Source: Candidatus Saccharimonadota bacterium (lineage in GTDB: Bacteria > Patescibacteriota > Saccharimonadia > Saccharimonadales > Saccharimonadaceae). Taken from it: 32,000 nt of DNA. The stretch covers positions 240,001-272,000 of the forward strand of contig JBAQRV010000001.1 of the NCBI GenBank assembly GCA_049296095.1, given 5' to 3'. The translations under genes were made by a program, and so were the position numbers. The notes under the pieces were generated by a model. It saw only the letters and a list, made by a program, of their open reading frames with translations, was not told where the DNA came from and did no database searches. This document shows positions 6,107 to 32,000 of the stretch, piece after piece (positions within the stretch are counted from its first letter, which is position 1; the number at the start of each line of letters is the position of its first letter).

Positions 6107-6179
6107 AAGCCTATAACTTAATAGGCAAGACCATTCCTATCCATCAACCGTGCCCCTAGGGCACAGAGAGAAGGCCATC

Positions 6180-8264
6180 ATGGCATTCTTGTCCACGCTG
6201 GGATCTCGAAAGAAATCCCTGCTGACAGTGGTGACGGCAACCGCCGCCGCCTGTCTGCTCGCCCTGGCACCGCTCAGTGCGAACGCCGAAGGCGAACCTG
6301 ATCCGAACACCGAGGTCGTCACGACCGAAGGGGCATCCGCCCCCGAGGAAGAGACGGCACCGATCGAGGAGACGGAGGAGGTGACCGACGAGACGCCCGC
6401 CACCGAGGAATCCATCGCGGATTCCGAGAAGGAGATCGTCACCGAGGAATCCTCCAGGAAGATGCCCAAGAAGGTTTTCGTCTGCAAGTACGTCGGTACC
6501 CCCGGCGTCGACGAGGCCCTTCAGACCGGGCAGAACCCCATCTCGGTATCGGTCAACAGCATCCAGAACTGGGATGGTATCATCCCGGGCTACTTCTCGG
6601 ACGCTCACGATCGTTCCTACGTCCTCGAATACGACGAGGGTCAGGAAGAGCCGGATGTCTCGGAGTGCCCCGACCCGGATGACCCGTTCAACTGGGACTG
6701 GGAGTACGCAGCCCCGACATGCACCGCGCTGACCGTCGTCTACCCCTCGGACATCCCGAGCGGACAGGCGAACGATGTCAACGTGCGCATCGAGAACCTT
6801 CTCACCAACCAGGAGCTCACGCTGAACTTCCACAAGGACAGCGGCACCTGGAGCGGGACGAAGGTCTTCGATTTCACCACCCACCCGAACTGGCCGAACT
6901 GGTCGTACTACAAGGTGGAGTGGGTGCAGGTCGCAGGTACGAACTACCACTGGGAGGGCACCGTGACGTGCGGCACCCCGCCGCCGCCCGTCGTGCAGCA
7001 GTGTACCGCACCCAACGCGCCGATCACGCTCACCAACCTCGACGACATGTTCTTCGAGGACCGGCAGAACCCGAGTGACCCCACCAACAAGGGGACACAC
7101 GAGCTCGTCGACGGTGGTATCGAGATCAGCACGACCGGTGGCGGTTACTACTCGAAGTCCGCCGGCTACATCGCGGTTGACATCCCCTTCGAGGAGATCG
7201 GGTCGCCCAGCTTGGGCTACACGGTCTACTCCGGAGCGAGCGCCGGCCTGAACCTCACCCTGTACAAGAATGGGGTGTGGTTCGGTAACCTGGTGTACGA
7301 ACCGCTCTTCGCGGAGTGGTGGATCAACAAGGCTGTTCCCGGCATGTCCGCGGGACCGAACCCGGGCTACCAGCTCGCGTACGGAACCCTGGACGAGTTC
7401 CTGCAGGCCTTCGTGGCCAACGGATGGGACGTCGACGTCAAGGCGATCGGCTACTCGCTCGGTTCGAACGCGGTCGGTGCAGGCCTGGTAACCTCCCTGG
7501 TCATCGGGTGCGACACCTACTTGTTCGACAAGGCGTTCGTCGCTCCGACCGCGTCCGCGCAGATCATCTGCACGGAAGGTGACCCGTCGCTCGAGGTGAC
7601 AGGTACGGCCGGATCCGAGGAGACCGAGTTCCAGACGCAGATTTTCGGCGTCACGGTGCACACCGAGACGGTTGCCCCTTACGGTAGCTACTCGTATCCC
7701 GATCCGATCTCGGAGTTCCAGAATGGTGACAGCTTTACCGTCACCGTTCTCGCGAACGGCGTGGCGGTCTTTGGACCGACGGAGTTCACGATCGACTGTG
7801 AAGAGCCCGAGGAGCCGACGATTGTCGTCCCCGAGAGCCCGACCATGGTCGATCCGTGTGGCACCGACGACGACTCGTTCACCCTGCCGAGCGCTGAGCC
7901 CGGAGAGACCGAGTCGGTGACGGACGAAGGCACCTACACCGCCGACGACCAGCGCGACGAGAACGGCGTCGGTGACGTGATCGTGACGTTCACGCCCGCA
8001 GAAGGTTTCGTGGTGTCTGACACCAAGAACGCCGACTACGAGCTGGACGAGAACGGCAACGCCGTCTGGACCTTCACGTTCACCGACGAGAAGTGCCCAA
8101 CCAACCCGCCCGTGACGCCGCCCAGCACCACTGGGCTGCCGAACACCGGCTCTGGCAACCCGCTGCCCTTCGTGGGGGTCGGCTTCCTGCTGTTGTTTGC
8201 TGGATTGAGCTTCGTGCTCATCCAGCAGCGCCGTCGGAACAAGGCCAACGCCTCGGCCGAGTGA
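6180..8264 (+). CDS. Secreted LPXTG-anchored cell-wall surface protein (sortase substrate), foreign high-GC composition
   Basis: Signal peptide '...LLALAPLSANA/EGEPD', an acidic E/T/P-rich stalk, Cys-containing globular regions and a PPPP linker. C-terminal 'LPNTG' is followed by a hydrophobic stretch and 'QQRRRNK'. AGAAGG lies 5 nt upstream of the ATG at 6180. Confidence 0.85.
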   Translation: MAFLSTLGSRKKSLLTVVTATAAACLLALAPLSANAEGEPDPNTEVVTTEGASAPEEETAPIEETEEVTDETPATEESIADSEKEIVTEESSRKMPKKVFVCKYVGTPGVDEALQTGQNPISVSVNSIQNWDGIIPGYFSDAHDRSYVLEYDEGQEEPDVSECPDPDDPFNWDWEYAAPTCTALTVVYPSDIPSGQANDVNVRIENLLTNQELTLNFHKDSGTWSGTKVFDFTTHPNWPNWSYYKVEWVQVAGTNYHWEGTVTCGTPPPPVVQQCTAPNAPITLTNLDDMFFEDRQNPSDPTNKGTHELVDGGIEISTTGGGYYSKSAGYIAVDIPFEEIGSPSLGYTVYSGASAGLNLTLYKNGVWFGNLVYEPLFAEWWINKAVPGMSAGPNPGYQLAYGTLDEFLQAFVANGWDVDVKAIGYSLGSNAVGAGLVTSLVIGCDTYLFDKAFVAPTASAQIICTEGDPSLEVTGTAGSEETEFQTQIFGVTVHTETVAPYGSYSYPDPISEFQNGDSFTVTVLANGVAVFGPTEFTIDCEEPEEPTIVVPESPTMVDPCGTDDDSFTLPSAEPGETESVTDEGTYTADDQRDENGVGDVIVTFTPAEGFVVSDTKNADYELDENGNAVWTFTFTDEKCPTNPPVTPPSTTGLPNTGSGNPLPFVGVGFLLLFAGLSFVLIQQRRRNKANASAE

Positions 8265-8271
8265 GTCGAAT
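8261..8271. repeat. Right copy of the 11-bp inverted repeat (gtgagtcgaat), overlapping the LPXTG gene stop codon
   Basis: Exact reverse complement of 6096-6106. Confidence 0.5.
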
Positions 8272-8336
8272 CAGAACCCGTGTCTAGCGGCCTCTAGATA
8301 ATCAGTTCTGCCCTCGCAATAGGGCATCGAGCAACA

Positions 8337-8385
8337 GGGACCCCCGATCAGCTTCACGGCTGTGACGGGGTCCCTTCTCAATTTC
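8337..8385 (+). terminator. GC-rich hairpin terminator candidate after the LPXTG gene
   Basis: gggacccc (8337-8344) pairs with ggggtccc (8367-8374) and is followed by 'ttctcaatttc'. A smaller hairpin (tgccct/agggca) lies at 8309-8326. Confidence 0.5.
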
Positions 8386-8452
8386 AGAGTAATTTTTCAA
8401 ATCATAAACATAAGCGTATACTGTACTTACAACCTAAAGGAGGACGATAGGT

Positions 8453-8665
8453 ATGCGAGTAGTAAACGTTATAGCACTAATACTAATCATAATTGGAGGC
8501 CTCAACTGGGGACTGGTCGGATTCTTCGACTACAACCTTGTCGATGCCATCTTTGGCGAAGGCTCAGGCCTCGCGCGTGTCATCTATGCAGTCGTAGGAC
8601 TGGCAGCGGTGTACAAACTTGTGATTGCAATTGGCAGTCGCACAATGGCTACAGAGAAAAAATAA
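8453..8665 (+). CDS. DUF378-family small membrane protein
   Basis: 70 aa with two TM helices. 'IGGLNWGLVGFF..NLV' is the DUF378 signature. A strong SD AAAGGAGG lies at 8436-8443. Confidence 0.75.
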   Translation: MRVVNVIALILIIIGGLNWGLVGFFDYNLVDAIFGEGSGLARVIYAVVGLAAVYKLVIAIGSRTMATEKK

Positions 8666-8675
8666 GGTATCCCTT

Positions 8676-8714
8676 AAAAGAGTCCGCGCCTCTAGTGCTG
8701 CGGGCTCTTTTTTA
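8676..8714 (+). terminator. Rho-independent terminator after the DUF378 gene
   Basis: aaaagagtccgc (8676-8687) pairs with gcgggctctttt (8700-8711), one G-U pair, with a T-run continuing to 8713. Confidence 0.7.
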
Positions 8715-8752
8715 TTTCCCCATAGGCCTCTCTAGACAAAATATCTAGCTTG

Positions 8753-8761
8753 TGCTATAAT
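8753..8761 (+). promoter_or_regulatory. Extended -10 box TGCTATAAT for the DEAD-box helicase transcript (long leader)
   Basis: A perfect TGnTATAAT. The start codon lies ~130 nt downstream at 8892. Confidence 0.5.
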
Positions 8762-8811
8762 GAAGCCATTGCATCCGAATGGATACCGTCTCTGTTTAAG
8801 AAAGATTTCTG

Positions 8812-8864
8812 AAATAGATATCAAAAGGTTCTCGCTGTTCGTCTGCAGCGAAACATATCTATTT
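8812..8864 (+). promoter_or_regulatory. Nested stem-loop in the helicase 5' UTR
   Basis: Outer 10-bp stem aaatagatat (8812-8821) with atatctattt (8855-8864). It encloses a 6-bp hairpin tcgctg (8832-8837) with cagcga (8846-8851). Confidence 0.4.
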
Positions 8865-8891
8865 AAACCCTGAAAGGGGACTACTGTCTCT

Positions 8892-10130
8892 ATGACATAC
8901 CGAAACACACGCTCATCAACCAAACCAAGCTCATCACGAGCAGGACACCGTTCATTCGGTGGTCCATCAAGTCGTCCACAACGAAGTGGAGGCGGCAACC
9001 GTCGTGGTGCTTATATCCACCCAAGTAAATTTATTAACAAGGCAGTCACCGCTGCCGAGGAAGTAATCTACGAAGCAAAGCATACTTTTGCTGATTTTAA
9101 GTTCCGCCCCGACCTTGAACGTAATATCGTTCACAAGGGCTACGTCACGCCAAGCGCCATCCAGGACCAAGCAATTCCGCACATCCTTGCAGGCAAGGAC
9201 GTCATTGGCCTCGCTAATACTGGTACGGGTAAGACAGCCGCCTTCCTTCTTCCGATCCTTGAAAAGTTAGACGAACGAACGCAGATGCCATCCGTACTCA
9301 TTATGGCACCGACTCGTGAGCTGGCCGTTCAGATCCAAGAAGAGTTCCGCGCCTTCTCAACTGGCATGCGTCTTTTCTCAGCCCTTGTGGTTGGTGGGAT
9401 GAACATTGACCGTCAGATTCGCGACATTCGTCGCCGTCCACACGTCATTATCGGCACACCTGGTCGTCTTAAAGACCTCATGAAACGAAATGAGCTCAAG
9501 CTCCAGGAAGTCAAATTCCTCGTCCTCGACGAAGCTGACCGAATGCTCGACATGGGATTCATCAACGACATCCGAAATATCATCAGTGAAATTCCTAAAG
9601 AACGCCAAACATTGTTCTTTAGTGCAACCATTACGCCAACCATCCAAACATTGGTGAATGAATTCTTGCAAAATCCTGAAGTTATCTCAGTCCGAACCGC
9701 CGACACCAGCGAACACGTCGAACAAGACATCGTTGAAGTTGCCAGCAAAGAAGCTAAGCTCGATACCTTAGTTGAGATGCTTCGTGGTGAAACTTTTGAT
9801 AAGGTCCTTGTTTTCGGTGAAACGAAATTCGGCGTCCAACGTCTGTCAGATCATCTTGAACGAAGCGGCTTTACCTCTGTTGCTATCCACGGTAACAAGT
9901 CTCAGTCACAACGCCAACGTGCCCTCAAGTCTTTCAAAGACAACCAGGTCAAGATCATGGTTGCCACCGACGTTGCCGCTCGTGGCCTCGACATTCCAAA
10001 TGTCAGCCACGTCATCAACTTTGATCAACCAGCCACCTATGAAGACTACGTCCACCGTATCGGCCGAACCGGTCGTGGTGGTGCCAGTGGAAAAGCTTTC
10101 ACTTTCGTTCCAACCCAGAACCGCTACTAA
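8892..10130 (+). CDS. DEAD-box ATP-dependent RNA helicase with an R/G/S-rich N-terminal extension
   Basis: Q-motif region, 'ANTGTGKTAAF', 'PTRELA', 'VLDEADRMLD', 'FSAT' and 'HRIGRTGRGG'. Confidence 0.93.
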   Translation: MTYRNTRSSTKPSSSRAGHRSFGGPSSRPQRSGGGNRRGAYIHPSKFINKAVTAAEEVIYEAKHTFADFKFRPDLERNIVHKGYVTPSAIQDQAIPHILAGKDVIGLANTGTGKTAAFLLPILEKLDERTQMPSVLIMAPTRELAVQIQEEFRAFSTGMRLFSALVVGGMNIDRQIRDIRRRPHVIIGTPGRLKDLMKRNELKLQEVKFLVLDEADRMLDMGFINDIRNIISEIPKERQTLFFSATITPTIQTLVNEFLQNPEVISVRTADTSEHVEQDIVEVASKEAKLDTLVEMLRGETFDKVLVFGETKFGVQRLSDHLERSGFTSVAIHGNKSQSQRQRALKSFKDNQVKIMVATDVAARGLDIPNVSHVINFDQPATYEDYVHRIGRTGRGGASGKAFTFVPTQNRY

Positions 10131-10202: not shown

Positions 10203-10901
10203 ATGCTCTACAGTCTTAGCCTCCTCGTCCTTCTGTTCTTCGTCTACTCATTCATCGGCTGGATCCACGAGATCATCTACCGCCTCATCACTGAACGCAA
10301 GTTCTATACAACCGGCTTCTTAACAATGCCTATCTTGCCAATTTATGGAACTGGGGCGACCGTCATCCTACTACTGGTCGATCCTTATTTCGATAACCCA
10401 TTCGTCGTCTTTGCGCTCAGTGTCGTGATTGCCTCTGTGTTGGAATACACCACGCATCTTATCTTGGACAAGCTATTTCACATTCAACTATGGGACTATA
10501 GCAAGAAGAGATTTAACCTCCAGGGCAGAATCTGTCTCGAGAACTCACTCGGGTTCGGTATCTTAGCGCTCTTGCTCGTGTACGTACTACATCCTCTGTT
10601 CTCAGGCTGGCTCGGTATGATTCCTGACTCAATCGCTATTATTATTGCTATCGTACTCAGCTCGCTGCTCATTATCGACTTTGCTAACTCTGTCATCAGT
10701 CTTGTTAGGGTGCGCATGAGTGCTATTAAGGGGACACTCAAAGCCATCTGGGAGCACCTAGTCAACGAACTTTCGATCATCACCACGGCTGATCCAACGA
10801 AGAGAAAGCGTCTCATCCGTATTCGACGAGCCCTGCTTCGACTCCATGAACTGAACTTACGTCGCTTAACACGGGCCTACCCAAATGCCCAACGTAAATA
10901 A
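10203..10901 (+). CDS. Polytopic membrane protein ('putative ABC-transporter type IV'/CmpB-like family)
   Basis: The N-terminal 'FFVYSFIGWIHEIIY' motif is typical of that family. There are several TM helices and a basic C-terminal tail. Confidence 0.55.
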   Translation: MLYSLSLLVLLFFVYSFIGWIHEIIYRLITERKFYTTGFLTMPILPIYGTGATVILLLVDPYFDNPFVVFALSVVIASVLEYTTHLILDKLFHIQLWDYSKKRFNLQGRICLENSLGFGILALLLVYVLHPLFSGWLGMIPDSIAIIIAIVLSSLLIIDFANSVISLVRVRMSAIKGTLKAIWEHLVNELSIITTADPTKRKRLIRIRRALLRLHELNLRRLTRAYPNAQRK

Positions 10902-10965
10902 CAGCCAATTACCACAAGCGCGTTATAATAAAATGGCGTACACTAGAATAGAAAAGGAGAACAAC

Positions 10966-11382
10966 ATGACAGATAGTATTGATCACGGACCTGGTCCGTT
11001 TGTCGCTAACATCGAGGATGCGACACTCGCCAACACCAACTATCGAACTACTCTTTGGACCGGTAAGCACCTTCAAGTGACTCTGATGGCAATTCAGCCT
11101 GGTCACGACATCGGCCTAGAGGTTCATGAAACTGTTGACCAGTTCCTTCGTATCGAAGAGGGGAAGGCAACGGTCTACATGGGGGATTCAAAAGAGAATT
11201 TGGAGTCATGGGAAGCTAACAATGACGATGCTGTTATTGTTCCAGCTGGAACTTGGCACAACCTCGTTAACTCTGGCGATACGCCACTGAAAGTCTACTC
11301 AATCTACGCACCGCCACAGCACCCACACGGCACAGTTCACGTTACAAAAGAAGAGGCTGACGCTGACGAAGCGAACGAATAA
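10966..11382 (+). CDS. Cupin-domain protein
   Basis: 'GHDIGLEVHETVDQFLRIEEG' and 'VIVPAGTWHNLVNSG' are cupin motifs 1 and 2. A GGAGA SD lies 5 nt upstream of the ATG at 10966. Confidence 0.75.
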   Translation: MTDSIDHGPGPFVANIEDATLANTNYRTTLWTGKHLQVTLMAIQPGHDIGLEVHETVDQFLRIEEGKATVYMGDSKENLESWEANNDDAVIVPAGTWHNLVNSGDTPLKVYSIYAPPQHPHGTVHVTKEEADADEANE

Positions 11383-11385
11383 TAA

Positions 11386-12168
11386 CTATTTAAGCAGAAG
11401 GCCACCATCGACCACAATCTGACTACCAGTCATATATGATGACAGGTCAGATGCTAAAAAGAGGGTGGCCTTTGCAATGTCATCGCCCTGGCCAATGCGC
11501 TTCATTGGGATACGAGCTTCCATCGCCTTGAGCGTATCAGGAATCTCACCGTCTATCGATCCGACGCCTGGAGTCGCGATTGCCCCAGGTGCGATGGCAT
11601 TAACAGTGATATTGCGCTCTGCGAGCTCGAGAGCGATATTCTTTGTAAAGCCCCAAACACCGTGCTTTGATGCATCGTAATGTGCTAAACCTGCCATTGA
11701 AGGGTGAATAGCATCAATCGAAGTGATATTGATGATCTTGCCGCCGTCATTCATCGCAGTCGCCGCATTCTGAGTGCACAGAAACACGCCCTTCAGGTTC
11801 ACATCGATTACCCGCATAAAGTCGGCCTCATTCATATCCATCACATTCTGAAAAGGATAGATACCAGCATTGTTCACGAGAATATCCAAAGAGCCACATT
11901 TCTCAAGGGTATAAGCAAAGGCCGCCTCGACTTCAGAAGCCCGACTCACGTCTAATCCGAAAGAGTGGGCGGATCCCGCGCGCAGTTCGTTCAATTCATT
12001 GGCCAGAGTATCAGCCGCATCTCGGTTAAGATCCGAGACGATCACCATTGCTCCCGCCTGATGAAGTCGGCGCACAATAGCCTGTCCAATACCCATAGCC
12101 GCGCCAGTCACAAAGGCAACCTTCCCGTTCAAGGTCAGTAGTGAGTCTATTGTTTCGAGTTCTTTCAT
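11386..12168 (-). CDS. Short-chain dehydrogenase/reductase (FabG-like)
   Basis: 'VTGAAMGIGQA' (TGxxxGxG), 'NNAG' and the catalytic 'YDASK'. Its ATG overlaps the upstream gene's stop (ATGA). Confidence 0.9.
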   Translation of the reverse strand: MKELETIDSLLTLNGKVAFVTGAAMGIGQAIVRRLHQAGAMVIVSDLNRDAADTLANELNELRAGSAHSFGLDVSRASEVEAAFAYTLEKCGSLDILVNNAGIYPFQNVMDMNEADFMRVIDVNLKGVFLCTQNAATAMNDGGKIINITSIDAIHPSMAGLAHYDASKHGVWGFTKNIALELAERNITVNAIAPGAIATPGVGSIDGEIPDTLKAMEARIPMKRIGQGDDIAKATLFLASDLSSYMTGSQIVVDGGLLLK

Positions 12169-12770
12169 CGTGCCACACCCCGTTTCTTCTTATGCTTTAT
12201 TGTACTATATCTGGCACGCCGAACAAGCAAGTAGACAGCGAATCCGGCATTCGTCACGAATAATAGGGCAGGGTAAAGGGCTGTCACGACACTGACGGTT
12301 TGCAAGGCAAATAGTGCAATAAGGAACTTCAGGCTGTTAAGTGCAAAGGTAGTGACAGTTTCTTCTCGAGCACCTTTCCAGGCTTTGCGAATGGTTGGCG
12401 CAAAGCCGAGCAAAGAAATGATGCTCGCCAGAACAACAGACAAGACCACATCAGAGGTCTGATACCAGACCACCAAAACAAACCCAGCAGCAACCAAGCA
12501 GAACCAATCAAGCCGCGTAATGCGTCGCTCACCGTATTTAAAAGACAAACCAAAGATAATAAAGTTTGCCAATGCTGCACTGCCGGTCACCCAGGCTCCT
12601 GGTCCGGCACCAGCCGCCAGTTGCTGGAAAAATATAAAGGAATTAAGCATTCCCCATATCAACCAGGTTAACCCGTGCGGCTTGGTCTTGCCACGGAACA
12701 TGTCACGAAAGTAAAGCCCATAGCTGATAATAGCCATGAGGATAGTGAGAAGGCCAAGCCAGACAGTCAT
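12165..12770 (-). CDS. Integral membrane protein, unknown function
   Basis: About 6-7 predicted TM helices. The start at 12770 was chosen because a TATACT box sits 7 nt upstream. The gene is coupled to the SDR gene by a 4-nt overlap. Confidence 0.6.
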   Translation of the reverse strand: MTVWLGLLTILMAIISYGLYFRDMFRGKTKPHGLTWLIWGMLNSFIFFQQLAAGAGPGAWVTGSAALANFIIFGLSFKYGERRITRLDWFCLVAAGFVLVVWYQTSDVVLSVVLASIISLLGFAPTIRKAWKGAREETVTTFALNSLKFLIALFALQTVSVVTALYPALLFVTNAGFAVYLLVRRARYSTIKHKKKRGVAR

Positions 12771-12777
12771 ATAGATA

Positions 12778-12783
12778 AGTATA
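12778..12783 (-). promoter_or_regulatory. -10 box TATACT, 7 nt upstream of the ATG at 12770 (leaderless arrangement)
   Basis: The reverse complement of 12778-12783 is TATACT. The gap is 'tatctat'. Confidence 0.4.
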
Positions 12784-12815
12784 ACCTTTATCGAGAAGAA
12801 GTGAATTACCTCACG

Positions 12816-12824
12816 TGCTATACT
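12816..12824 (+). promoter_or_regulatory. Extended -10 box TGCTATACT, 6 nt upstream of the ATG at 12831 (leaderless arrangement)
   Basis: TGCTATACT, gap 'caaact', then ATG. It lies back-to-back with the minus-strand box at 12778-12783. Confidence 0.5.
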
Positions 12825-12830
12825 CAAACT

Positions 12831-13292
12831 ATGCAAGAAGATTCTATTTCAACCATCGCCGCTTATATTAATGAACACCCCTTGGCTGTCCTCAGCACTG
12901 TCACGCCGTCAGGCACACCTCATGGCACGACGCTTTACGTAGGAAGCGACCCGCAGCTTCATCTTTTCTTTATGACCAAGCGCGAAACTCAGAAGCATGA
13001 GAATATTCTCAGCAACCCGAAGGTTGCACTTACTTTCAGTGGTGAAGACCACCAAACAACACTTCAGCTGAATGGTATTGCATCCGAAGTCGCCGTCCCA
13101 GATGAAGGTGCGAGGGCATTCCAGGTCCTTGGCACTATCCGCCACAATAGCGAAGACTTCCGTCTACCGATTTCAAAGATCGAGGCCGGACCATACATTG
13201 TCTACCGCGTCGATGTTGCCGAAGCAATTCTCACTGAATACGAACACGGTAACCGAGTTGATGGGATCGTAACGGTTACCTATAATCGTTAA
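12831..13292 (+). CDS. Pyridoxamine 5'-phosphate oxidase-like (FMN-binding split-barrel) protein
   Basis: 'LAVLSTV..G.PHG..LY' and 'LHLFFMTKRETQKHENILSNPKVALTF' fit the PNPOx-like fold pattern. The 12675 start was rejected because it overlaps the divergent gene. Confidence 0.6.
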   Translation: MQEDSISTIAAYINEHPLAVLSTVTPSGTPHGTTLYVGSDPQLHLFFMTKRETQKHENILSNPKVALTFSGEDHQTTLQLNGIASEVAVPDEGARAFQVLGTIRHNSEDFRLPISKIEAGPYIVYRVDVAEAILTEYEHGNRVDGIVTVTYNR

Positions 13293-13320
13293 GGTCTATC
13301 GAGAGGATCCTAGGCTCTAA

Positions 13321-13809
13321 ATGAAACGTATTTCTGCAGAATATCTCCAAAGTGCAATGTTCGGATTTAACGATGCGCTCGTGTCAACCACGGGAGTTAT
13401 AGTTGGAATTAGCGCTGGTACTGGCAGGAAGGAAGTGGTCATCCTCGCTGGGGTCGTGACGATACTTGTAGAGGCACTGTCAATGGGGGCAGGTCAGTAT
13501 CTTAGCTCCAAATCGGCCCATCAACTCAATAAAGAAAAGTCGTCGAGATCATCGATCCTCAGCGGACTCATCATGCTATTTGCGTACTTTACGGCAGGGC
13601 TTGTGCCATTATTGTCTATTGTCTTCTTTCCGATTAGTTATTCTACTATCGTCGCGGTTATCGCATCACTAACGTGCCTTTTGGTGCTTGGTTACATCAA
13701 AGGAAAAGTTGTTCAGGTTTCTCCTTTGAGAAGTGCGTTCGAGGTTTTTGTCATTGGTGGTATCGCCACGGCAATCGGTATCATAGCCGGGAAAATTTTC
13801 TCTATTTAA
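13321..13809 (+). CDS. VIT1/CCC1-family (Fe/Mn transporter-like) membrane protein, short form
   Basis: 'FGFNDALVSTTGVIVGISAG' and 'EALSMGAGQYLS' are VIT-family motifs. Confidence 0.7.
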   Translation: MKRISAEYLQSAMFGFNDALVSTTGVIVGISAGTGRKEVVILAGVVTILVEALSMGAGQYLSSKSAHQLNKEKSSRSSILSGLIMLFAYFTAGLVPLLSIVFFPISYSTIVAVIASLTCLLVLGYIKGKVVQVSPLRSAFEVFVIGGIATAIGIIAGKIFSI

Positions 13810-13873
13810 GGACAAAATCTTATATACTCTTAAACATAGAGTGCATTAAGCAATAAAACGATAGAAGGGTATC

Positions 13874-14215
13874 ATGACATTTCTAGAATCAATCCAAGCA
13901 GTTCCACGTAAATATGCAGAATTTAGCGGCAGAGCTTCCCGCTCTGAATTCTGGTGGTGGATCCTTTTCACCGTACTCGTGACAAGCGCATTTAATGTAT
14001 TCAGCGTCATTACCGTTGGTCAAGATGGCTCAATCGGGTCAATACTGAGTGGGCTATGGGGTGTTGTGATTCTTCTTCCTACCCTTGCAGTGACAGTACG
14101 CAGGTTGCGTGATGCAGGCTATGCCTGGACGAATGTATTTTGGATACTTCTCCCATTTGCCGGCCTCATTATTCTCGCGATCTATCTCTCGAACCCTCAG
14201 GCAAAGAAAAAATAA
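13874..14215 (+). CDS. DUF805-family membrane protein
   Basis: 'F.GRASRSEFWWW.LF' and 'LAVTVRRLRDAG' are DUF805 signatures. Confidence 0.75.
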   Translation: MTFLESIQAVPRKYAEFSGRASRSEFWWWILFTVLVTSAFNVFSVITVGQDGSIGSILSGLWGVVILLPTLAVTVRRLRDAGYAWTNVFWILLPFAGLIILAIYLSNPQAKKK

Positions 14216-14236
14216 GAAATGGTGTCGTTTATAGCT

Positions 14237-14264
14237 AAATAGGACCTGTAGGGGGTCCTATTTT
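14237..14264. terminator. Bidirectional hairpin terminator between convergent genes
   Basis: aataggacc (14238-14246) pairs with ggtcctatt (14254-14262). It is flanked by an A-run and a T-run. Confidence 0.65.
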
Positions 14265-14311
14265 AATGTGTCACATTTGGCTGGGGTTAGTGGATGTGTT
14301 CCAGTAACTTT

Positions 14312-14998
14312 TTAACTTAGAATCTGCGCAACTGTGCTGTCGGCTAAGATTTTCATAGTATCGAATATCTCAACTTTATTACTTTCTGGGTTCAAGAGCT
14401 GCAAGTCCGTACATGCGAGTGCAACGAAGGATACATCTTTCGAGATAGAGTTGGCGGTATCGATAAGGAATTCGCGGTCTTCATCAAGGTGCTCCCCATT
14501 CACAAGACGTTGAATAATAGTATCGATTTTTGATCGCTGTTCGTCAGTAGGAGTTACATATTCGATTCCACTTTCAGAAAGTTTCGATTCGTATACCTTA
14601 TTTTCGATTGTCGCAGACGTAGAGATAAGACCAACCTTTTTTATGTCTTTGCTATTCAAGTATTTAATTGTTTCCTCAACAATACTCAACACTGGAATTG
14701 AAACAGCCGCTCGAATTTCATCAATAAATACATGCAACGAATTACATGGCATTACAAGAAAATCGACACCACTTTTCTCTAGCTTCCTAGCTTCTTCCTG
14801 AAGAAAGGGGATATAACGTTTAATGCCAGTATTATGTGCAATTAAGTCACGTTCAATCTCAAATAACAAAGGGACGCTACCGATAACGACAGACGGTCGC
14901 TGATTATCATTTAGCTGCTGACAACGAAAAATAACCTCTAAGTAGAAGTTTGCTGTTGTTTCTGGACCTAGACCTCCAATAATACCTACAGACTTCAT
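14312..14998 (-). CDS. Aspartate/glutamate racemase family protein
   Basis: 'GIIGGLGPETT' plus the two catalytic-Cys motifs 'MPCNSLH' and 'LACTDL'. Confidence 0.85.
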   Translation of the reverse strand: MKSVGIIGGLGPETTANFYLEVIFRCQQLNDNQRPSVVIGSVPLLFEIERDLIAHNTGIKRYIPFLQEEARKLEKSGVDFLVMPCNSLHVFIDEIRAAVSIPVLSIVEETIKYLNSKDIKKVGLISTSATIENKVYESKLSESGIEYVTPTDEQRSKIDTIIQRLVNGEHLDEDREFLIDTANSISKDVSFVALACTDLQLLNPESNKVEIFDTMKILADSTVAQILS

Positions 14999-15004
14999 AC
15001 ACTC

Positions 15005-15013
15005 ATCATAGCA
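15005..15013 (-). promoter_or_regulatory. Extended -10 box TGCTATGAT, 6 nt upstream of the racemase ATG (leaderless arrangement)
   Basis: The reverse complement of 15005-15013 is TGCTATGAT. The gap is 'gagtgt' and the ATG is at 14998. Confidence 0.5.
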
Positions 15014-15038
15014 AACAAAAGAACCTCCGAAGAAGTTC
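15013..15038 (-). terminator. Rho-independent terminator after tRNA-Gln (UUCG tetraloop)
   Basis: The minus strand reads gaacttc-ttcg-gaggttc (7 bp with one G-U pair) followed by ttttgttt. Confidence 0.65.
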
Positions 15039-15052
15039 TAAAGTAATAAATC

Positions 15053-15126
15053 TGGCTGGGGATGAGGGATTCGAACCCCCGATATCGGGACCAGAACCCG
15101 GTGCCTTACCACTTGGCCAATCCCCA
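15053..15126 (-). tRNA. tRNA-Gln (anticodon CUG), CCA encoded
   Basis: The 74-nt reverse complement is TGGGGATTGGCCAAGTGGTAAGGCACCGGGTTCTGGTCCCGATATCGGGGGTTCGAATCCCTCATCCCCAGCCA. It has a 7-bp acceptor stem with a U1-A72 pair, a GGTTCGAATCC T-arm and the anticodon loop TTCTGGT. It closely resembles E. coli tRNA-Gln. Confidence 0.88.
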
Positions 15127-15198
15127 AAGCTTCATTATTTTAACATATTTGGCATGAATTACTAAGGTTATTATTCTGCTTGACCCTTATGCTTATAC

Positions 15199-15226
15199 TT
15201 GCGTCACCGCTTATGTTTGTTACAAT
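15199..15226 (+). promoter_or_regulatory. Promoter TTGCGT-16 nt-(TGt)TACAAT, with the -10 box ending 6 nt upstream of the pilin ATG (leaderless arrangement)
   Basis: -35-like TTGCGT at 15199-15204 and extended -10 TGTTACAAT at 15218-15226. The gap is 'gagcat', the ATG is at 15233, and there is no SD. Confidence 0.55.
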
Positions 15227-15232
15227 GAGCAT

Positions 15233-16897
15233 ATGAATCGGCTGAATAAAGGCTTTACTCTTGTCGAATTAATCGTTGTGATAGCGGTCATTGGTATTCT
15301 GGCAACCGTGACGGTGATCGGACTTGGACGCTATCAGGCTGATACCAGGGATGCTCGACGCGCTGCAAACGCGACGGTCATTAGTGAGGCGCTTGAAAAA
15401 TACTACGATGCCAACGGGGAATACCCAAGCTGTGGTGCGATCACTGCCGCAGGCAACGTTGTTACCGATAACACTGGCCCTTTGGCTGGCGTAGACAAGA
15501 ATTCTATCGTGGCACCGCAAGCACCTGGGGGAACAACCAACTCTATCGTCTGCGGCACTACACTCGGACTAACCGGTGATGACTTTTACCAGTACGTTGG
15601 CGATGGCAGTGCCGCATGTTCTGGAAGTAGCTCATGTTTGTCCTATAGCCTTAAATATCGCAATGAAGTCGACAATGAAATCATCACGCTTTCCGGTCGT
15701 CGCAATACCTCAATTGCAACTGCCGGCGCCGCTACTATTTCAGTCACGGCGATAGATTTCTCAACCATTAATGTCTCTTGGACCGCTATTCCAAATGCGA
15801 CCAGCTATCTCGTCCAGCGATGTACCGCGGCTGGGTGTGGCGTAGGAACAACCACCGATATCCCCGTTGGTGACGTCACCACCGCTACAGCCACTGGTCT
15901 GAGCAGTGGGACGCCGTACTGGTTCCGTGTTCGTCCAGATGCGACCTCGACAAACGGGACATGGTCAAATACTATCAGCGCTACAACTCTACAGATTGCC
16001 GCGCCGAACCCTCAAGGAACTCCCAACTCAGGAACACAGATCACGATTACCTGGAGTGCTGTCGCCAATGCCGTCAGCTACACACTTGAATACTCCACCT
16101 CACCAACACTTGCCAGTGGTGTCACGACGATTACAGGCATTACGACCACTAACCGCGTTCTCACAGGTCTGTCTGTCGGAGCGACCTATTATTTCCGCGC
16201 CAAGGCCATCAATGGTGCCATTCAAAGCGCCTGGTCATCTATCAATAATGCAACGACCGCTGTCCCTGCACCAGCGAGTTGTACTCCAAGTTTGGCGAGC
16301 AATACACAGATCAACCTCAGTTGGGCGGCGGTCACCAGCGCTACCAGCTACACCGTCGAATATGCAACCAATAGTGGGTTTACCAGTTCGACAGTCATAC
16401 CGAACATTGCCACAACCACACGTTCGCTTACCGGGCTTCTCAACGGAACATCCTATTATATGCGAGTTAAGGCAGTGAACGGCTCTGTCCAAGGTAGTTG
16501 GGCGACCTGCGCCACAACCTCTACAGGTGTTAGCGGTCCAATCTCAGCTGGATACAGCTATGGTGGCTGCTGCCAAGTAGTAAACATCGGTGCGGTTGAC
16601 TGGGTTGGGAGCAATGCGGATGGTTATAGCGGCAACAACTACGCCTCACACGTCGATACGTACGGCTCATGTGAAGGTGGCGCTGAATTCCAAATCTATA
16701 TGGATGTCTGGTACGCCTACAGCAACGGAAGTGGTGCCAATGATTATGCGGCCGAAGGCTGGACGACAGGTAACCGCAGCTGGTGGATGATTAATGGCTC
16801 TAATAGTTGGTATGGCTACTATAATGCCAAAGTGCGATGTCTCATCAATGGCCAAACGGCTGGTGGGTGGAGCATGGGCACGATCGGGGGATATTAG
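15233..16897 (+). CDS. Type IV pilin-like protein with three FN3 modules and an aromatic/Gly-rich C-terminal domain (554 aa)
   Basis: Class III signal 'MNRLNKG/FTLVELIVVIAVIGILA' with Glu at +5 and a pilin-core 'ALEKYYDANGEYPS'. This is followed by three ~88-aa FN3-like repeats and a 124-aa W/Y/G/N-rich C-terminus. Confidence 0.85.
   Translation: MNRLNKGFTLVELIVVIAVIGILATVTVIGLGRYQADTRDARRAANATVISEALEKYYDANGEYPSCGAITAAGNVVTDNTGPLAGVDKNSIVAPQAPGGTTNSIVCGTTLGLTGDDFYQYVGDGSAACSGSSSCLSYSLKYRNEVDNEIITLSGRRNTSIATAGAATISVTAIDFSTINVSWTAIPNATSYLVQRCTAAGCGVGTTTDIPVGDVTTATATGLSSGTPYWFRVRPDATSTNGTWSNTISATTLQIAAPNPQGTPNSGTQITITWSAVANAVSYTLEYSTSPTLASGVTTITGITTTNRVLTGLSVGATYYFRAKAINGAIQSAWSSINNATTAVPAPASCTPSLASNTQINLSWAAVTSATSYTVEYATNSGFTSSTVIPNIATTTRSLTGLLNGTSYYMRVKAVNGSVQGSWATCATTSTGVSGPISAGYSYGGCCQVVNIGAVDWVGSNADGYSGNNYASHVDTYGSCEGGAEFQIYMDVWYAYSNGSGANDYAAEGWTTGNRSWWMINGSNSWYGYYNAKVRCLINGQTAGGWSMGTIGGY
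15725..16522 (+). repeat. Three tandem FN3-like coding repeats inside the pilin-like gene
   Basis: Each repeat has the pattern '(I/V)..SW.A...A.SY.(V/L).(Y/R)... T..T.TGL..G..Y(Y/W)(F/M)R(V/A)(K/R)'. The repeats span about aa 165-252, 255-342 and 344-430. Confidence 0.7.
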
Positions 16898-16899
16898 CC

Positions 16900-17568
16900 A
16901 TGATAGAAGAGATGACTATGCGTAAGAAAATTATAATAAGCATCGCCGCCCTCCTTGGCGTTGCCGTGCTTGTGTTTGGAGCCCTCTTTGTCATACAACT
17001 AATCCGTTCTCAAAACGAGGAAACTCCACCGGCCGAAACACTTGTTGGGCCTAATTTATCGAAAAATTATGGCGCCTGTGACTTGTTTGACAAGGCAACG
17101 GTCAAAACTGCACTAGGCTCAGCCGCAAATGAGCTGCAAGACCCTCAAAACAATGGCATTGTTGATGGCAAAAAAGTTGGTGGCGGTATGGAAGACCTCG
17201 TGTTTGACTCCCAGGTCTGTATTTACGGATTTGCGCCTGGTGGAACTTTTGAAGACGGCTCTGGCAGTGGTAATGGTCTGACCGTTTTGGTTGCTAAATA
17301 TACCAACGAAACGGGTCCAGCCACCTTCATCGCCGCTATTCGAGATGAACCTCTGATCGAGGAAATTACAGACCTTGGTGACGATGCCTTTTACAATGCC
17401 AATACTACCGCGACCGGACCTGGCGCAATGTATAACTTTAAATTGCAAGTGTTTAAGGGTAAAACCCTCTACGAATACACGATTCGACAACCAGCCGATG
17501 CTGCTACCTATACGGCGGAATCTGCCAAAACTGCCCTGGTGACACTAGCTAAAGCCGCCAAAGACTAG
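16900..17568 (+). CDS. Membrane-anchored or secreted hypothetical protein directly downstream of the pilin-like gene
   Basis: The ATG lies 2 nt after the pilin stop. N-terminal 'RKKIIISIAALLGVAVLVFGALFVI' is a TM anchor or signal. An ATG at 16918 is an alternative start. Confidence 0.65.
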   Translation: MIEEMTMRKKIIISIAALLGVAVLVFGALFVIQLIRSQNEETPPAETLVGPNLSKNYGACDLFDKATVKTALGSAANELQDPQNNGIVDGKKVGGGMEDLVFDSQVCIYGFAPGGTFEDGSGSGNGLTVLVAKYTNETGPATFIAAIRDEPLIEEITDLGDDAFYNANTTATGPGAMYNFKLQVFKGKTLYEYTIRQPADAATYTAESAKTALVTLAKAAKD

Positions 17569-18053
17569 CTTGTTTTAATACGACGATAGGCAAATTTGGT
17601 GTGCTGTCGCCAGTCACCATTCGTGTCACTATCGTATTGATAAATCATGCCACCCTTGACTTCGCTGATTAAAATAAGCGCTGGTGAGTAGGGAGCAAGT
17701 GTCCGATAAAAAGCGATATCTTGTTCATTGATATGCCCTCGGCCTGGAAAAATCTCACGGAACTTCTCAGTACCAACCTCGTCGAAGTAGTGTGGGCGAT
17801 TCTTTGGCGGCATATATAGTTCCGCCTTTAAGCCAACTCGCGAGACAATCTTTTGAACATCAGAAAGTAGTAGTTTCGATTGACTCGTCACATAGAGAAA
17901 CAGTTGCTTCTTCTTTGTCAGAAAAAGCGTCGCTTCAGCCGTTCGACTGACAGGGATACGCCTTGCAATTACCGAATCAACTTCAGCCGCCACACCAAAC
18001 TGAGCTTTCAGGTTCTTTTCGAGCGCAAAGTCCTCATAGACCTGTTCGTTCAT
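17565..18053 (-). CDS. Hypothetical protein (162 aa)
   Basis: A clean ORF. The start at 18053 was chosen because TGGTACAAT ends 7 nt upstream. The 18062 ATG overlaps that box. I recognised no family. Confidence 0.55.
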   Translation of the reverse strand: MNEQVYEDFALEKNLKAQFGVAAEVDSVIARRIPVSRTAEATLFLTKKKQLFLYVTSQSKLLLSDVQKIVSRVGLKAELYMPPKNRPHYFDEVGTEKFREIFPGRGHINEQDIAFYRTLAPYSPALILISEVKGGMIYQYDSDTNGDWRQHTKFAYRRIKTS

Positions 18054-29989: not shown

Positions 29990-32000
29990 TTAGTTGATTG
30001 ATGTGACAGTAAATGTTCCGCTCGAAGTAAAGCGATGAATCGTATTGCCACCCGAAGTAGTGATCGTTCCACCCGTCGCCGTCATCGTACCGGTAGGATA
30101 GGAGATAATAACCACACCAGAGCCACCGGCACCACCATTTCCGCCGCCATCGCCTCCGCCGCCGCCACCGCCGCCTCTGTTCGCCGTGCCCGCTGCGCCT
30201 GCAGTCGGACCGCCACCTTGGCCACCAACACCGCCAGCACAACCCGCCGCCCCTACACCATTAGTAACATTTGCCCAACGGCCACCGCTACCACCGCCTG
30301 CGTAGCAGACACTTGCACCACTTATTGAAGTTGTATAGCCGGCCCCTCCTGTACCCGAGACACCTGCGCTCATAGCACCTGTTGCATTACCACCTGCGCC
30401 CGTTGCGCCACCGCCACCACCACCTTGACCTGCAGTAGAGTCAGAGGATCCATTACCCCCTCTGTTCCCACGACCGATAGTCCCGAGCATACCCGCACCG
30501 GCAACTCCCGTTGCTGCGTCGATCGTCCCTGCGCCGCCGCCACCAGAACCACCTATTGTCGCCTGAGAAACAGAGTTTGTGTTAATGCGCCCGCCGCCGC
30601 CGCCGCCGCCTAGAGAGATAATTGTTGAGAATACCGAAGTACCACCCATTCCGCCTGGAGTACCGATGCCAACACCACCACTTCCTCCAGCACCAACCGT
30701 TACGGCATACGCCTGCTGGCTTACAACTACCGTACCTTCAGAAACACCGCCACCACCACCGCCACCTGCGTGGTTATTTCCGCCGCCGCCACCGCCACCA
30801 ACTACCAGCGCTTGTACCGTTGCTAGTTGTTCTGTATCTGGTACGGGTCGAAAAGCTGCACTATAAGAATAGGGGATTGTACTACTTGTAGACCAGACAA
30901 AACCGGCTAACCAACTTGCATCGGTACGAGTTAATATAGAGCTGTCAGATAATTTCCGAACTGAAAGGCTAAACCCAGCGCCACCACTAACATTGTAGTC
31001 TGAAACCGCAAACTGATGTTCACCCTCAGTAAGAGTCACGTTTACCGTATAGACATTGTTATATGAGCCTGAAGCGATGATAGTACCATCAAGATAGATA
31101 TCACAGGTTTCATCGCAGTTATATGTCACCCTCACATCAGTCGGTGAAGTAACCGTAATTGTTCGACTATCGCGAAAGAATGAGTACTGCGCCGACGGGG
31201 AATTACCGGAGCCATCATAATTATGCACTGTCGTAATCCAACGCGCACCCGCATCGCTACTATTACTTGTCCATGCGCTGTTAACTGCCTGTGCACTAAA
31301 CCTATCTCGACTCACTCCCCACATACTTGATAACGCATCAAAATCCTTATGTGCAAAGTTAACCGTGTCACCGGCCGTTGCTCGCCAACTGCGATCTGTC
31401 ACTGCAACTGGGATTGAAGCACCTTCTTGAATGACGCTCGCTTCAAAACGAGCAGCATTGTTTGCTAAGTCTGGACTCAGGTTAATCAAACGTACAAATA
31501 CATTGTGACATCCACTCGATAAAGTGACACTACCGGATCCGAGAGTGCCCGCTTCAGACCTAGTAATATACTTCCCGTCGACATATATATATGCACTATC
31601 GTTCACACCAGACACCTGTACGCCAACGTTATAAGTTCCTGCATTCGTCACGCTAAAGTCTTTCCTGTAGTAGGTCGAGCCGGGATTTAAAGCACTGTCA
31701 GAAATACTTATTGTCTGCGCTAAAGACGTGGGAGAGTAATCGACCTGAGTACTCGTAAGAACAGCTGCTTGCCAACCTAATGTGCTCGAAGTTGCCCCGG
31801 AACATAGATCGGGAACGACCGCCGCCTGGACGCTTGGTTGAGTGTAAGTTCGCCAGACCGATCCATTCGATGTACGAGTAATTTCCGTATAGCCAGTATT
31901 AGGGATAGTGACCGCTTTGCCATCACTATCGAGAGTCGGGCGACCCACACTAAATGAACTGCGGACATTGCCGTTCTGGGTTACGAAACATTGCGGGCCG
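29990..32000 (-). CDS. Large protein with PA14-like beta-sandwich modules and a C-terminal glycine-rich domain (N-terminus outside the window)
   Basis: The frame stays open to the window edge. The 31948 'start' is an internal GTG. Two PA14-like modules are present ('AYIYVDGKYI...GCHNVFVRL' and 'CDIYLDGTII...GEHQFAVSDYN'). A ~270-aa poly-Gly block domain ends 'GGNTIHRFTSSGTFTVTSIN'. Confidence 0.8.
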   Translation of the reverse strand, partial: GPQCFVTQNGNVRSSFSVGRPTLDSDGKAVTIPNTGYTEITRTSNGSVWRTYTQPSVQAAVVPDLCSGATSSTLGWQAAVLTSTQVDYSPTSLAQTISISDSALNPGSTYYRKDFSVTNAGTYNVGVQVSGVNDSAYIYVDGKYITRSEAGTLGSGSVTLSSGCHNVFVRLINLSPDLANNAARFEASVIQEGASIPVAVTDRSWRATAGDTVNFAHKDFDALSSMWGVSRDRFSAQAVNSAWTSNSSDAGARWITTVHNYDGSGNSPSAQYSFFRDSRTITVTSPTDVRVTYNCDETCDIYLDGTIIASGSYNNVYTVNVTLTEGEHQFAVSDYNVSGGAGFSLSVRKLSDSSILTRTDASWLAGFVWSTSSTIPYSYSAAFRPVPDTEQLATVQALVVGGGGGGGNNHAGGGGGGGVSEGTVVVSQQAYAVTVGAGGSGGVGIGTPGGMGGTSVFSTIISLGGGGGGGRINTNSVSQATIGGSGGGGAGTIDAATGVAGAGMLGTIGRGNRGGNGSSDSTAGQGGGGGGATGAGGNATGAMSAGVSGTGGAGYTTSISGASVCYAGGGSGGRWANVTNGVGAAGCAGGVGGQGGGPTAGAAGTANRGGGGGGGGDGGGNGGAGGSGVVIISYPTGTMTATGGTITTSGGNTIHRFTSSGTFTVTSIN

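Follow-up and report, generated by a model that had tools for sequence, protein, structure and literature searches.

A 32-kb stretch of DNA (32,000 nucleotides (nt), hereafter the window) from a Candidatus Saccharimonadota bacterium (assembly GCA_049296095.1, contig JBAQRV010000001.1, positions 240,001 to 272,000 of the forward strand) encodes a 554-aa protein in which a type IV prepilin signal is followed by a globular head, three tandem FN3 domains and a C-terminal domain modelled as all-beta. Its gene is followed directly by that of a membrane protein, which is its near-obligate companion in related genomes. On balance, it is probable that the two constitute a modular minor type IV pilin and a dedicated membrane-anchored accessory protein. 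The parts of the pair lie in the window as follows:

15233..16897, plus strand: modular type IV pilin-like gene, an open reading frame (ORF) of 554 aa plus stop with Pfam N_methyl and three fn3 domains
15233..15337, plus strand: class III (prepilin) signal and alpha1-N, with leader MNRLNKG at aa 1-7 and helix at aa 8-35
15338..15727, plus strand: conserved globular head of the pilin module, aa 36-165 (~130 aa)
15728..16525, plus strand: three tandem FN3 domains, aa 166-253, 254-343 and 344-431, placed by Pfam fn3, PDB matches and repeat alignment
16526..16894, plus strand: C-terminal "tip" domain (the tail), aa 432-554, 123 aa, with a Cys-bracketed, all-beta AlphaFold2 model
16900..17568, plus strand: partner gene for a bitopic membrane protein, 222 aa from the ATG at 16900 or 216 aa from the ATG at 16918

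Prepilin signal and pilin head

The N-terminus carries a canonical prepilin signal with Glu at +5, as an earlier annotation made from the letters alone (the sequence-only reading) had proposed. A basic leader of seven residues, MNRLNKG, with Gly at -1 and Phe at +1, is followed by FTLVELIVVIAVIGILATV, and the hydrophobic alpha1-N helix after the predicted cleavage at Gly7 reads FTLVELIVVIAVIGILATVTVIGLGRYQ. PF07963 (N_methyl) matches aa 3-26 (E 9e-8, 31.8 bits, cut-off 21.2), the NCBIfam model for prepilin cleavage and methylation, TIGR02532, scores 31.8 bits against a cut-off of 16.3, and residues G7, F8, T9 and E12 are invariant in 29/29 homologues aligned. A six-frame motif search of the window returned this one prepilin signal, at 15233. 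When the protein was compared with solved structures by phmmer, aa 8-113 aligned to mature PilE and PilA from residue 1 (E 2e-5 to 8e-5), with geopilin also among the solved pilins that align from mature residue 1. None of the specific minor-pilin or pseudopilin equivalogs (GspG, GspH, ComGC, PilA_Myxo and others) scored above its NCBIfam cut-off; the best, GspG (TIGR01710), reached 32.9 bits against 88.85, and all such matches cover aa 2-78 only. The head that follows the helix bears the alpha1-C motif EALEKYYDxNGEYPSC together with four invariant cysteines (C67, C107, C129 and C135) and, with a mean pairwise identity of 55%, is the best conserved part of the protein after alpha1-N.

FN3 stalk and modular architecture

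The three tandem FN3 modules that had been proposed from the translation were recovered in full. PF00041 (fn3) covers three stretches (E 2e-22, 79.8 bits, cut-off 25), an FN3 hidden Markov model (HMM) derived from the family places the repeats at about aa 166-252, 256-342 and 345-431, the repeats are mutually alignable, and the middle of the protein matches tenascin, titin and the consensus FN3 domain FN3con in the PDB.

A homologue search retrieved 419 proteins at E <= 0.001 (among 8000 candidates scored), and the family counts for pilin module, FN3 number and tail type refer to the best 120 of these 419, on which HMMs for the three parts, built from the family alignment, were run. These 120 proteins are nearly all 540-570 aa long, and the named ones are from Saccharibacteria/Saccharimonadales. 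All of them (120/120) keep the pilin module. FN3 copies number three in 103 proteins, four in 11, five in 4 and two in 2, while the window-type tail is present in 93; the other 27 comprise 25 with a different tail of ~100-290 aa and 2 truncated fragments. Mean pairwise identity falls from the N- to the C-terminus (alpha1-N 65%, head 55%, FN3 40-47%, tail 36%). The FN3 array looks like a variable-length stalk, and the architecture as a whole combines an unchanging anchor with a stalk of adjustable length and with end modules of discrete types, each under its own constraint, as expected of a display scaffold in which the tail is the functional end. A scan of contigs with the full-length alignment was set aside, as its 79 loci were unrelated pilins from many phyla, drawn in by generic pilin helix and alpha1-C patterns.

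C-terminal tip domain

The sequence-only reading had pointed to an unusual aromatic-rich C-terminal domain, which is indeed present, though with 123 aa rather than the 124 given. It is composed of 17% W/Y/F, 20% Gly and 9% Asn and contains four cysteines; W457, C480, G483, Y494 and C536 are invariant, suggesting that a C480-C536 disulfide brackets the core. An AlphaFold2 model based on 24 family sequences has a predicted local distance difference test score (pLDDT) of 87 and a predicted template modelling score (pTM) of 0.79, with seven long strands and zero helices.

Within the window's clade the tail is 80-92% identical and the FN3 domains go down to 38-57% in distant members (e.g. P0004), making the tail the most constrained part of the protein at this level. 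For example, a fragment from another locus (L101) is 85% identical to the window in the tail, 55% in the third FN3 domain (FN3-3) and 58% in the partner. The codons used at identical residues are themselves identical in 42% of cases in the tail, 37% in FN3-3 and 43% in the partner, so that synonymous sites are equally saturated in all three. A highly conserved tail with synonymous sites this saturated points to purifying selection that maintains a functional tip type. A recent lateral transfer was rejected as the source of the 85% identity in the tip because the synonymous sites there are as saturated as those of FN3-3 and the partner.

The tail is without recognisable relatives in the libraries searched (Pfam, PDB, BFVD and representative proteins). 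It belongs to no Pfam family, its sole match being GBD_T9SS_assoc (E 0.015, 16 bits, below the cut-off of 27), and no Pfam HMM for a carbohydrate-binding module (CBM) or lectin reached threshold. Foldseek searches of the model against PDB and BFVD returned no match at E < 0.001, with template modelling (TM) scores of 0.25-0.4. The best PDB match (E 5.5e-3, TM 0.29) was to Ig-like beta-sandwich domains of GH2 enzymes, the best BFVD match had an E value of 1.3e-2, and there was a weak match to one porphyran-binding CBM (E 0.09). When 1.84 billion representative proteins were searched exhaustively with phmmer, seven matches were returned, none of them a CBM-containing relative: P0125, P0060 and P0047 are family members or fragments, and the other four are repeat proteins. 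A likeness to FG-GAP/VCBS repeat proteins (P0126-P0129) was confined to one Gly/Trp-rich hairpin and was judged to be local or compositional.

Some of the alternative tails (P0055, P0091, P0087 and aa ~515-804 of P0103) consist of one to three repeats of a Cys-bracketed unit of ~45-70 aa with the pattern C-P-x-G-T...Y..W...G...R/Y-C. This pattern resembles the core of the window tail below HMM significance (domain E 0.03), and the repeats could be distantly related, multiplied forms of that module.

Membrane-anchored partner

The next ORF had been described as membrane-anchored and starting 2 nt after the pilin stop codon. The membrane anchor is borne out and an ATG (16900) does sit 2 nt past the TAG stop, but the NCBI gene call and most homologues favour the ATG at 16918 (MRKK...), 20 nt past it. 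The protein has a basic N-terminus, a hydrophobic signal-anchor helix of ~25 residues (modelled at 2-30), a linker and an extracytoplasmic alpha/beta domain of ~155 aa with two invariant cysteines; in the AlphaFold2 model (pLDDT 84) the membrane helix leads through a disordered linker into an alpha/beta sandwich. No sequence match was found in Pfam, NCBIfam or PDB. Foldseek gave weak matches to 4esq (PknH sensor), 7cu8 and 7cu9 (TiME), 6e5d (LpqN), PsbP and DcrB, mostly with probabilities of 0.85-1.0 (LpqN 0.54), but with E values of 6e-3 to 9e-2 and TM-scores of 0.3-0.4. The modelled ectodomain is therefore assigned only tentatively to a PknH-sensor/PsbP/DcrB-like alpha/beta sandwich, with which it shares the succession of a helix, six strands and a C-terminal helix, an extracytoplasmic location and conserved cysteines. 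There is no sequence similarity to this fold class (PknH, TiME, LpqN, PsbP, DcrB), which is itself functionally heterogeneous.

An initial search with only four homologues had made the partner appear lineage-specific, which proved to be a word-index artefact, as profile and HMM searches show a conserved family. The profile search recovered 20 proteins, homologues at orthologous loci are 212-236 aa long, and the window partner shares 46-49% identity with the genes directly 3' of the pilin in relatives. Exact-protein look-ups showed the order pilin, partner, minus-strand gene of 162-165 aa, AddA-like helicase and Dus in 9/10 orthologous loci (the window, equivalent to L087, and L081, L082, L083, L084, L086, L098, L099 and L100); L080 is the sole orthologous locus that lacks the partner. 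The gap between the two genes ranges from -1 to +21 nt, and several loci have overlapping stop and start codons. Eight loci came from a metagenome scan that used the partner as anchor, and all seven with upstream sequence (7/7) have an ORF with FN3 and a window-type tail that ends 0-4 nt before the partner; the pilin N-terminus itself is present on only two of these contigs. The co-occurrence of the two genes is seen in both sets of loci, which strengthens the sequence-only reading, and the partner is a co-conserved, near-obligate and tightly coupled companion in a fixed core-genome slot. From the spacing of the two ORFs, pilin and partner are probably co-translated.

The association extends beyond a single tip type. 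The pilins at L098-L100 have other tail types and are still accompanied by a distant partner homologue (HMM E 4e-10 to 1.5e-22), so that the partner accompanies the entire pilin and is not tied to a single kind of tip. Specific co-evolution of partner and tip was not supported, as an identity of 85% in the tip goes with one of 58% in the partner and distant partners accompany other tails.

More divergent pairs were also found. A paralogous 804-aa pilin in another context (L085) is followed by a different bitopic protein that the partner HMM does not recognise. L084 has, at 7332-9999 and immediately upstream of the orthologous pair, a second cassette in which a 570-aa N_methyl and fn3 protein precedes a bitopic protein of 312 aa; the tip HMM does not detect the tail of this second pilin-like protein, nor does the partner HMM detect the protein downstream of it. 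Pairs of pilin and membrane protein may therefore duplicate and diverge as units.

Relation to known pilins

Modular pilins have been defined by an N-terminal IPR012902 motif combined with at least one extra domain that is not pilus-specific (Raynaud et al. 2021, PMC8179133), and the 554-aa protein falls within this definition with its N_methyl motif, three fn3 domains and one further domain. The survey comprises more than 1,200 proteins in 264 architectures, has FN3 (IPR003961) among its 15 most frequent extra modules, with "no clear function", takes 1 of its 15 representative proteins from Candidatus Saccharibacteria (A0A1Q3NLQ9) and mentions a modular pilin of 860 residues (PMC8179133). As the survey lists an FN3 architecture and the 860-residue case, the length of 554 aa, which had led the sequence-only reading to call the protein a giant pilin, stands as a measurement but is not exceptional. 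Like the surveyed proteins, this one has an N-terminal pilin module onto which non-pilin domains are grafted, for which a display role is expected; unlike them, it has a conserved downstream membrane partner, which is absent from their description (PMC8179133). It also goes beyond the survey's FN3 architecture in that a stalk of 2-5 copies is followed by a signature-less C-terminal domain as the likely functional module. The architecture class and the idea of a pilus-displayed adhesin are already known, the latter for example from Streptococcus sanguinis, whose PilB (pilin plus vWA) and PilC (pilin plus lectin) are modular pilins, PilB being a pilus-displayed adhesin (PMC8179133). What lies beyond the catalogue is FN3 as a variable stalk, an unrecognised beta end module in discrete types and a coupled bitopic companion.

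Type IV pili are near-universal in Saccharibacteria (PMC11623550), and the link to host association in this group, to which the sequence-only reading had appealed, is well founded in the literature (PMC9894109, PMC11623550). In Nanosynbacter lyticus TM7x, PilX2 is required for host binding and competitive fitness, and minor pilins have been proposed to bind glycans (PMC11623550). TM7x PilX1 and PilX2 resemble the FN3 pilin in being Saccharibacterial pilins with large C-terminal accessory domains (PMC11623550), but these are jelly-roll-like in PilX1 and a seven-bladed propeller in PilX2, without an FN3 stalk, and both genes lie within pilus loci. The Southlakia protein SEML1_0890, an essential protein described as "glycan-binding FN3" (PMC10633639), was rejected as an orthologue, as it has 196 aa, no annotated prepilin motif and another genomic context. 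Literature searches found no functional study of the FN3-pilin family.

A tip minor pilin with beta-rich C-terminal domains that works with a partner protein is also represented by Vibrio cholerae TcpB with TcpF. CofB and CofJ of enterotoxigenic Escherichia coli (discussed in PMC8179133) are likewise comparable, in that a minor pilin built of beta-repeats and a beta-sandwich is combined with a second protein from the same cluster. However, CofJ and TcpF are soluble secreted proteins, unlike the partner described here with its uncleaved-looking membrane helix, which shows no sequence or structural similarity to either of them, and the genes for CofB/CofJ and TcpB/TcpF are found in pilus operons. 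The Pam pili of Candidatus Mycosynbacter amalyticus are similar to the extent that they are Ig-like beta-sandwich surface filaments implicated in host contact (bioRxiv 10.64898/2026.03.03.709456). They were rejected as the same system because they are Sec-dependent, assemble by donor-strand exchange with chaperone-like proteins and have no class III signal, and are thus unrelated.

Proposed role and alternative explanations

If the protein is a minor pilin, a prepilin peptidase would cleave it after Gly7, and its alpha1 helix would keep it membrane-bound until its uptake by a type IV pilus machine whose genes lie elsewhere in the genome. It would be placed either at or close to the tip of the pilus or at scattered points along the fibre, with the FN3 stalk keeping the tip domain at a distance from the fibre; an FN3 domain is ~3.5 nm long, and three are ~10 nm. 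The tip domain would bind a surface ligand on a host bacterium or substrate, and the most likely task of the partner would be to hold, fold or present the large portion of the pilin outside the cytoplasm while it is still at the membrane, ahead of assembly. By analogy with the pilus-displayed proteins discussed above, an adhesin role for the pilin is plausible.

Several observations weigh against this reading. A profile of the head alone (aa 36-165) detected no solved pilin and no Pfam family, and its alpha1-C motif aligned weakly (E 0.89) to 4d40, a PilD-processed protein. Of the "pilin core" in the sequence-only reading, the demonstrably pilin-like part on sequence grounds is the signal and alpha1 helix only. 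No pilus-assembly Pfam family was present among the ~40 larger ORFs of the window (a set with all major non-overlapping ones, but without a few ORFs of 100 aa or more that are short or overlap others), be it a prepilin peptidase or a PilB/PilC-type machine, in agreement with the earlier remark that such genes are missing nearby, and no pilus-assembly gene is next to the pilin in any relative locus examined. The neighbours of the pilin gene are instead housekeeping genes, an unusual setting for a minor pilin. Searches with Pfam, phmmer and Foldseek (PDB/BFVD) did not relate the tip to any known adhesin, lectin or CBM. As to the two genetically tractable Saccharibacteria, none of the described TM7x pilins has FN3 domains or is orthologous to the FN3 pilin (PMC11623550), and the corresponding slot in Southlakia passes from ATP synthase and Dus to an AddA-like helicase, a small gene and, directly after it, a P-type ATPase, without pilin or partner; existing genetics is therefore silent on this family. 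Finally, we infer the role of the partner outright, and the processing of the pilin and its presence in pili from sequence.

An orphan gene in a housekeeping slot, far from pilus genes at every locus examined, would also suit a pilin-anchored surface protein that never polymerises and for which the class III signal is only a cleavable anchor. In that case, the FN3 stalk would cross the wall, and tip and partner would form a cell-surface complex for binding or sensing. Pseudopilin-like proteins and archaeal substrate-binding proteins with class III signals offer precedent for such anchoring. The same explanation would account for a constant companion that is also membrane-anchored and weakly resembles sensor and envelope domains (PknH sensor, TiME, LpqN, DcrB), and for a head whose 55% conservation is unusually high for a pilin. 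However, Glu+5 and the whole alpha1-N helix are invariant, and Glu+5 is needed for subunit-subunit packing in filaments but dispensable for mere anchoring. The characterised modular pilins found in literature searches, S. sanguinis PilB and TM7x PilX2, are displayed on the pilus or needed for it to function (PMC8179133, PMC11623550) and also argue for the pilus, and we consider a protein that is never polymerised to be rather unlikely. An assignment at the opposite extreme, in which the protein builds, as major subunit, a thick "bottle-brush" filament of its own, would fit a single-copy and widely conserved gene with an invariant polymerisation helix and a Gly/Ala/Ser/Thr content of 47%, at the top of the 38-47% range for major pilins (PMC11623550). 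Yet subunits that each bear an appendage of ~400 residues should, on steric grounds, be hard to pack in the manner known for type IV pili, those Saccharibacterial major pilins that have been identified are small (PMC11623550), and dedicated machinery was not found nearby among the larger window ORFs, so that such a filament seems highly improbable.

The remaining alternative concerns what the tip binds. The sequence-only reading took the tail composition to be typical of carbohydrate binding, in which case the tail would be a CBM and the protein a pilin for glycan capture or polysaccharide adhesion. This would be consistent with a tail rich in aromatics, Gly and Asn, with the sub-threshold matches to GBD_T9SS_assoc (E 0.015), the GH2 beta-sandwich and the porphyran-binding CBM (E 0.09), and with the glycan binding proposed for TM7x minor pilins (PMC11623550). 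However, no CBM or lectin HMM reached threshold, Foldseek gave no match at E < 0.001 (TM 0.25-0.4) despite a confident model, and the exhaustive sequence search returned no CBM-containing relatives. As the tail has no significant match to CBM or lectin families or structures, carbohydrate binding is not supported, and we regard it as improbable.

A more far-reaching version of the minor-pilin explanation would make the pair a two-gene host-recognition device of environmental Saccharimonadales, in which the tip is a new ligand-binding fold, discrete and strongly conserved tip types set the host or surface, and the partner acts as a novel type of chaperone or presenter for pilins, anchored in the membrane and needed for loading an oversized subunit; in this full form the proposal is doubtful. 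The family is large and lies in the core genome of environmental Saccharimonadales, and is a candidate for host or substrate specificity in these uncultured lineages, while the tip and the partner ectodomain are two domains without characterised relatives. The existing Saccharibacteria experiments concern human-associated strains, which appear to be without the gene pair.

Gene start and genomic surroundings

The pilin gene had been taken to begin at 15199, which is in fact 34 nt upstream of the real start, out of frame, intergenic and without a start codon. There is an in-frame TGA at 15182, and the ATG at 15233 is the first start beyond it; the resulting 554-aa protein matches, at 100% identity, an NCBI protein from a metagenome-assembled genome of Candidatus Microsaccharimonas (GCA_049286885.1). 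Two features lie upstream:

15218..15226, plus strand: possible extended -10 element TGtTACAAT, seen on sequence inspection and ending 6 nt before the ATG
15053..15126, minus strand: tRNA-Gln(CTG), adjoining the pilin gene upstream

A weak -35-like TTGCGT is found at 15199-15204; it matches the consensus at only 3/6 positions, which is why a consensus promoter scan did not list the -10-like element. No Shine-Dalgarno-like sequence precedes the pilin ATG (15199-15232), and, with a -10-like element this close to it (6 nt), the transcript may be leaderless or near-leaderless.

The tRNA gene is located next to the pilin as the sequence-only reading had stated, but in relatives the upstream gene is a DEAD-box helicase or tRNA methyltransferase, and since the tRNA is not adjacent there, its position is incidental and specific to the window's lineage. 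A tRNA-linked mobile element was rejected, as the window ORFs scanned include no integrase or recombinase and the tRNA is not adjacent in relatives. Relative to L080-L082, a block of ~5 kb plus the tRNA-Gln gene (window 10203-15126) lies between the DEAD-box helicase and the pilin; it encodes CmpB-like, cupin, SDR, hypothetical, PNPOx-like, VIT1, DUF805 and Asp/Glu racemase proteins. The window otherwise has a housekeeping content: a two-component system, GreA, a P-type ATPase, the DEAD-box helicase, small metabolic genes, an AddA-like UvrD/PD-(D/E)XK helicase-nuclease, Dus and an F1Fo ATP synthase operon.

Downstream of the pair, the 162-aa gene (window 17565-18053, minus strand) converges on the partner, with a 4-nt overlap of the 3' ends. 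It is ~80% identical across relatives, far above the pilin, and belongs to no Pfam family. By position only, its Southlakia counterpart would be SEML1_0365 (582 nt), scored NE/GD/ES in three essentiality columns of transposon sequencing (Tn-seq).

Other pilin-like genes occur near the FN3 pilin in some relatives. In L086 (5-2836; GCA_002422915.1) an RVT_1 reverse transcriptase and a bAvd protein accompany a 398-aa N_methyl protein with an FGE-sulfatase/C-type-lectin-like domain; the cluster, which lies ~7 kb upstream of the FN3 pilin, has the look of a diversity-generating retroelement whose target is a pilin-like protein. L081 and L082 also have N_methyl proteins of 386-405 aa near the FN3 pilin.

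Two further genes of the window encode unusual proteins. A 704-aa ORF at 6150-8264 (plus strand) has a Sec-type signal peptide, an acidic Glu/Thr/Pro-rich linker and no Pfam match, and ends in LPNTG, a hydrophobic stretch and RRRNK, the layout predicted for a sortase-anchored wall protein. It lies in a stretch whose GC content of 60-63%, against ~49% elsewhere, suggests horizontal acquisition, possibly from a high-GC (actinobacterial?) donor. At 29990-31948 (minus strand), immediately upstream of and overlapping the ATP synthase operon, lies the gene for a 652-aa protein matching Pfam Gly_rich_2 (E 1e-16).

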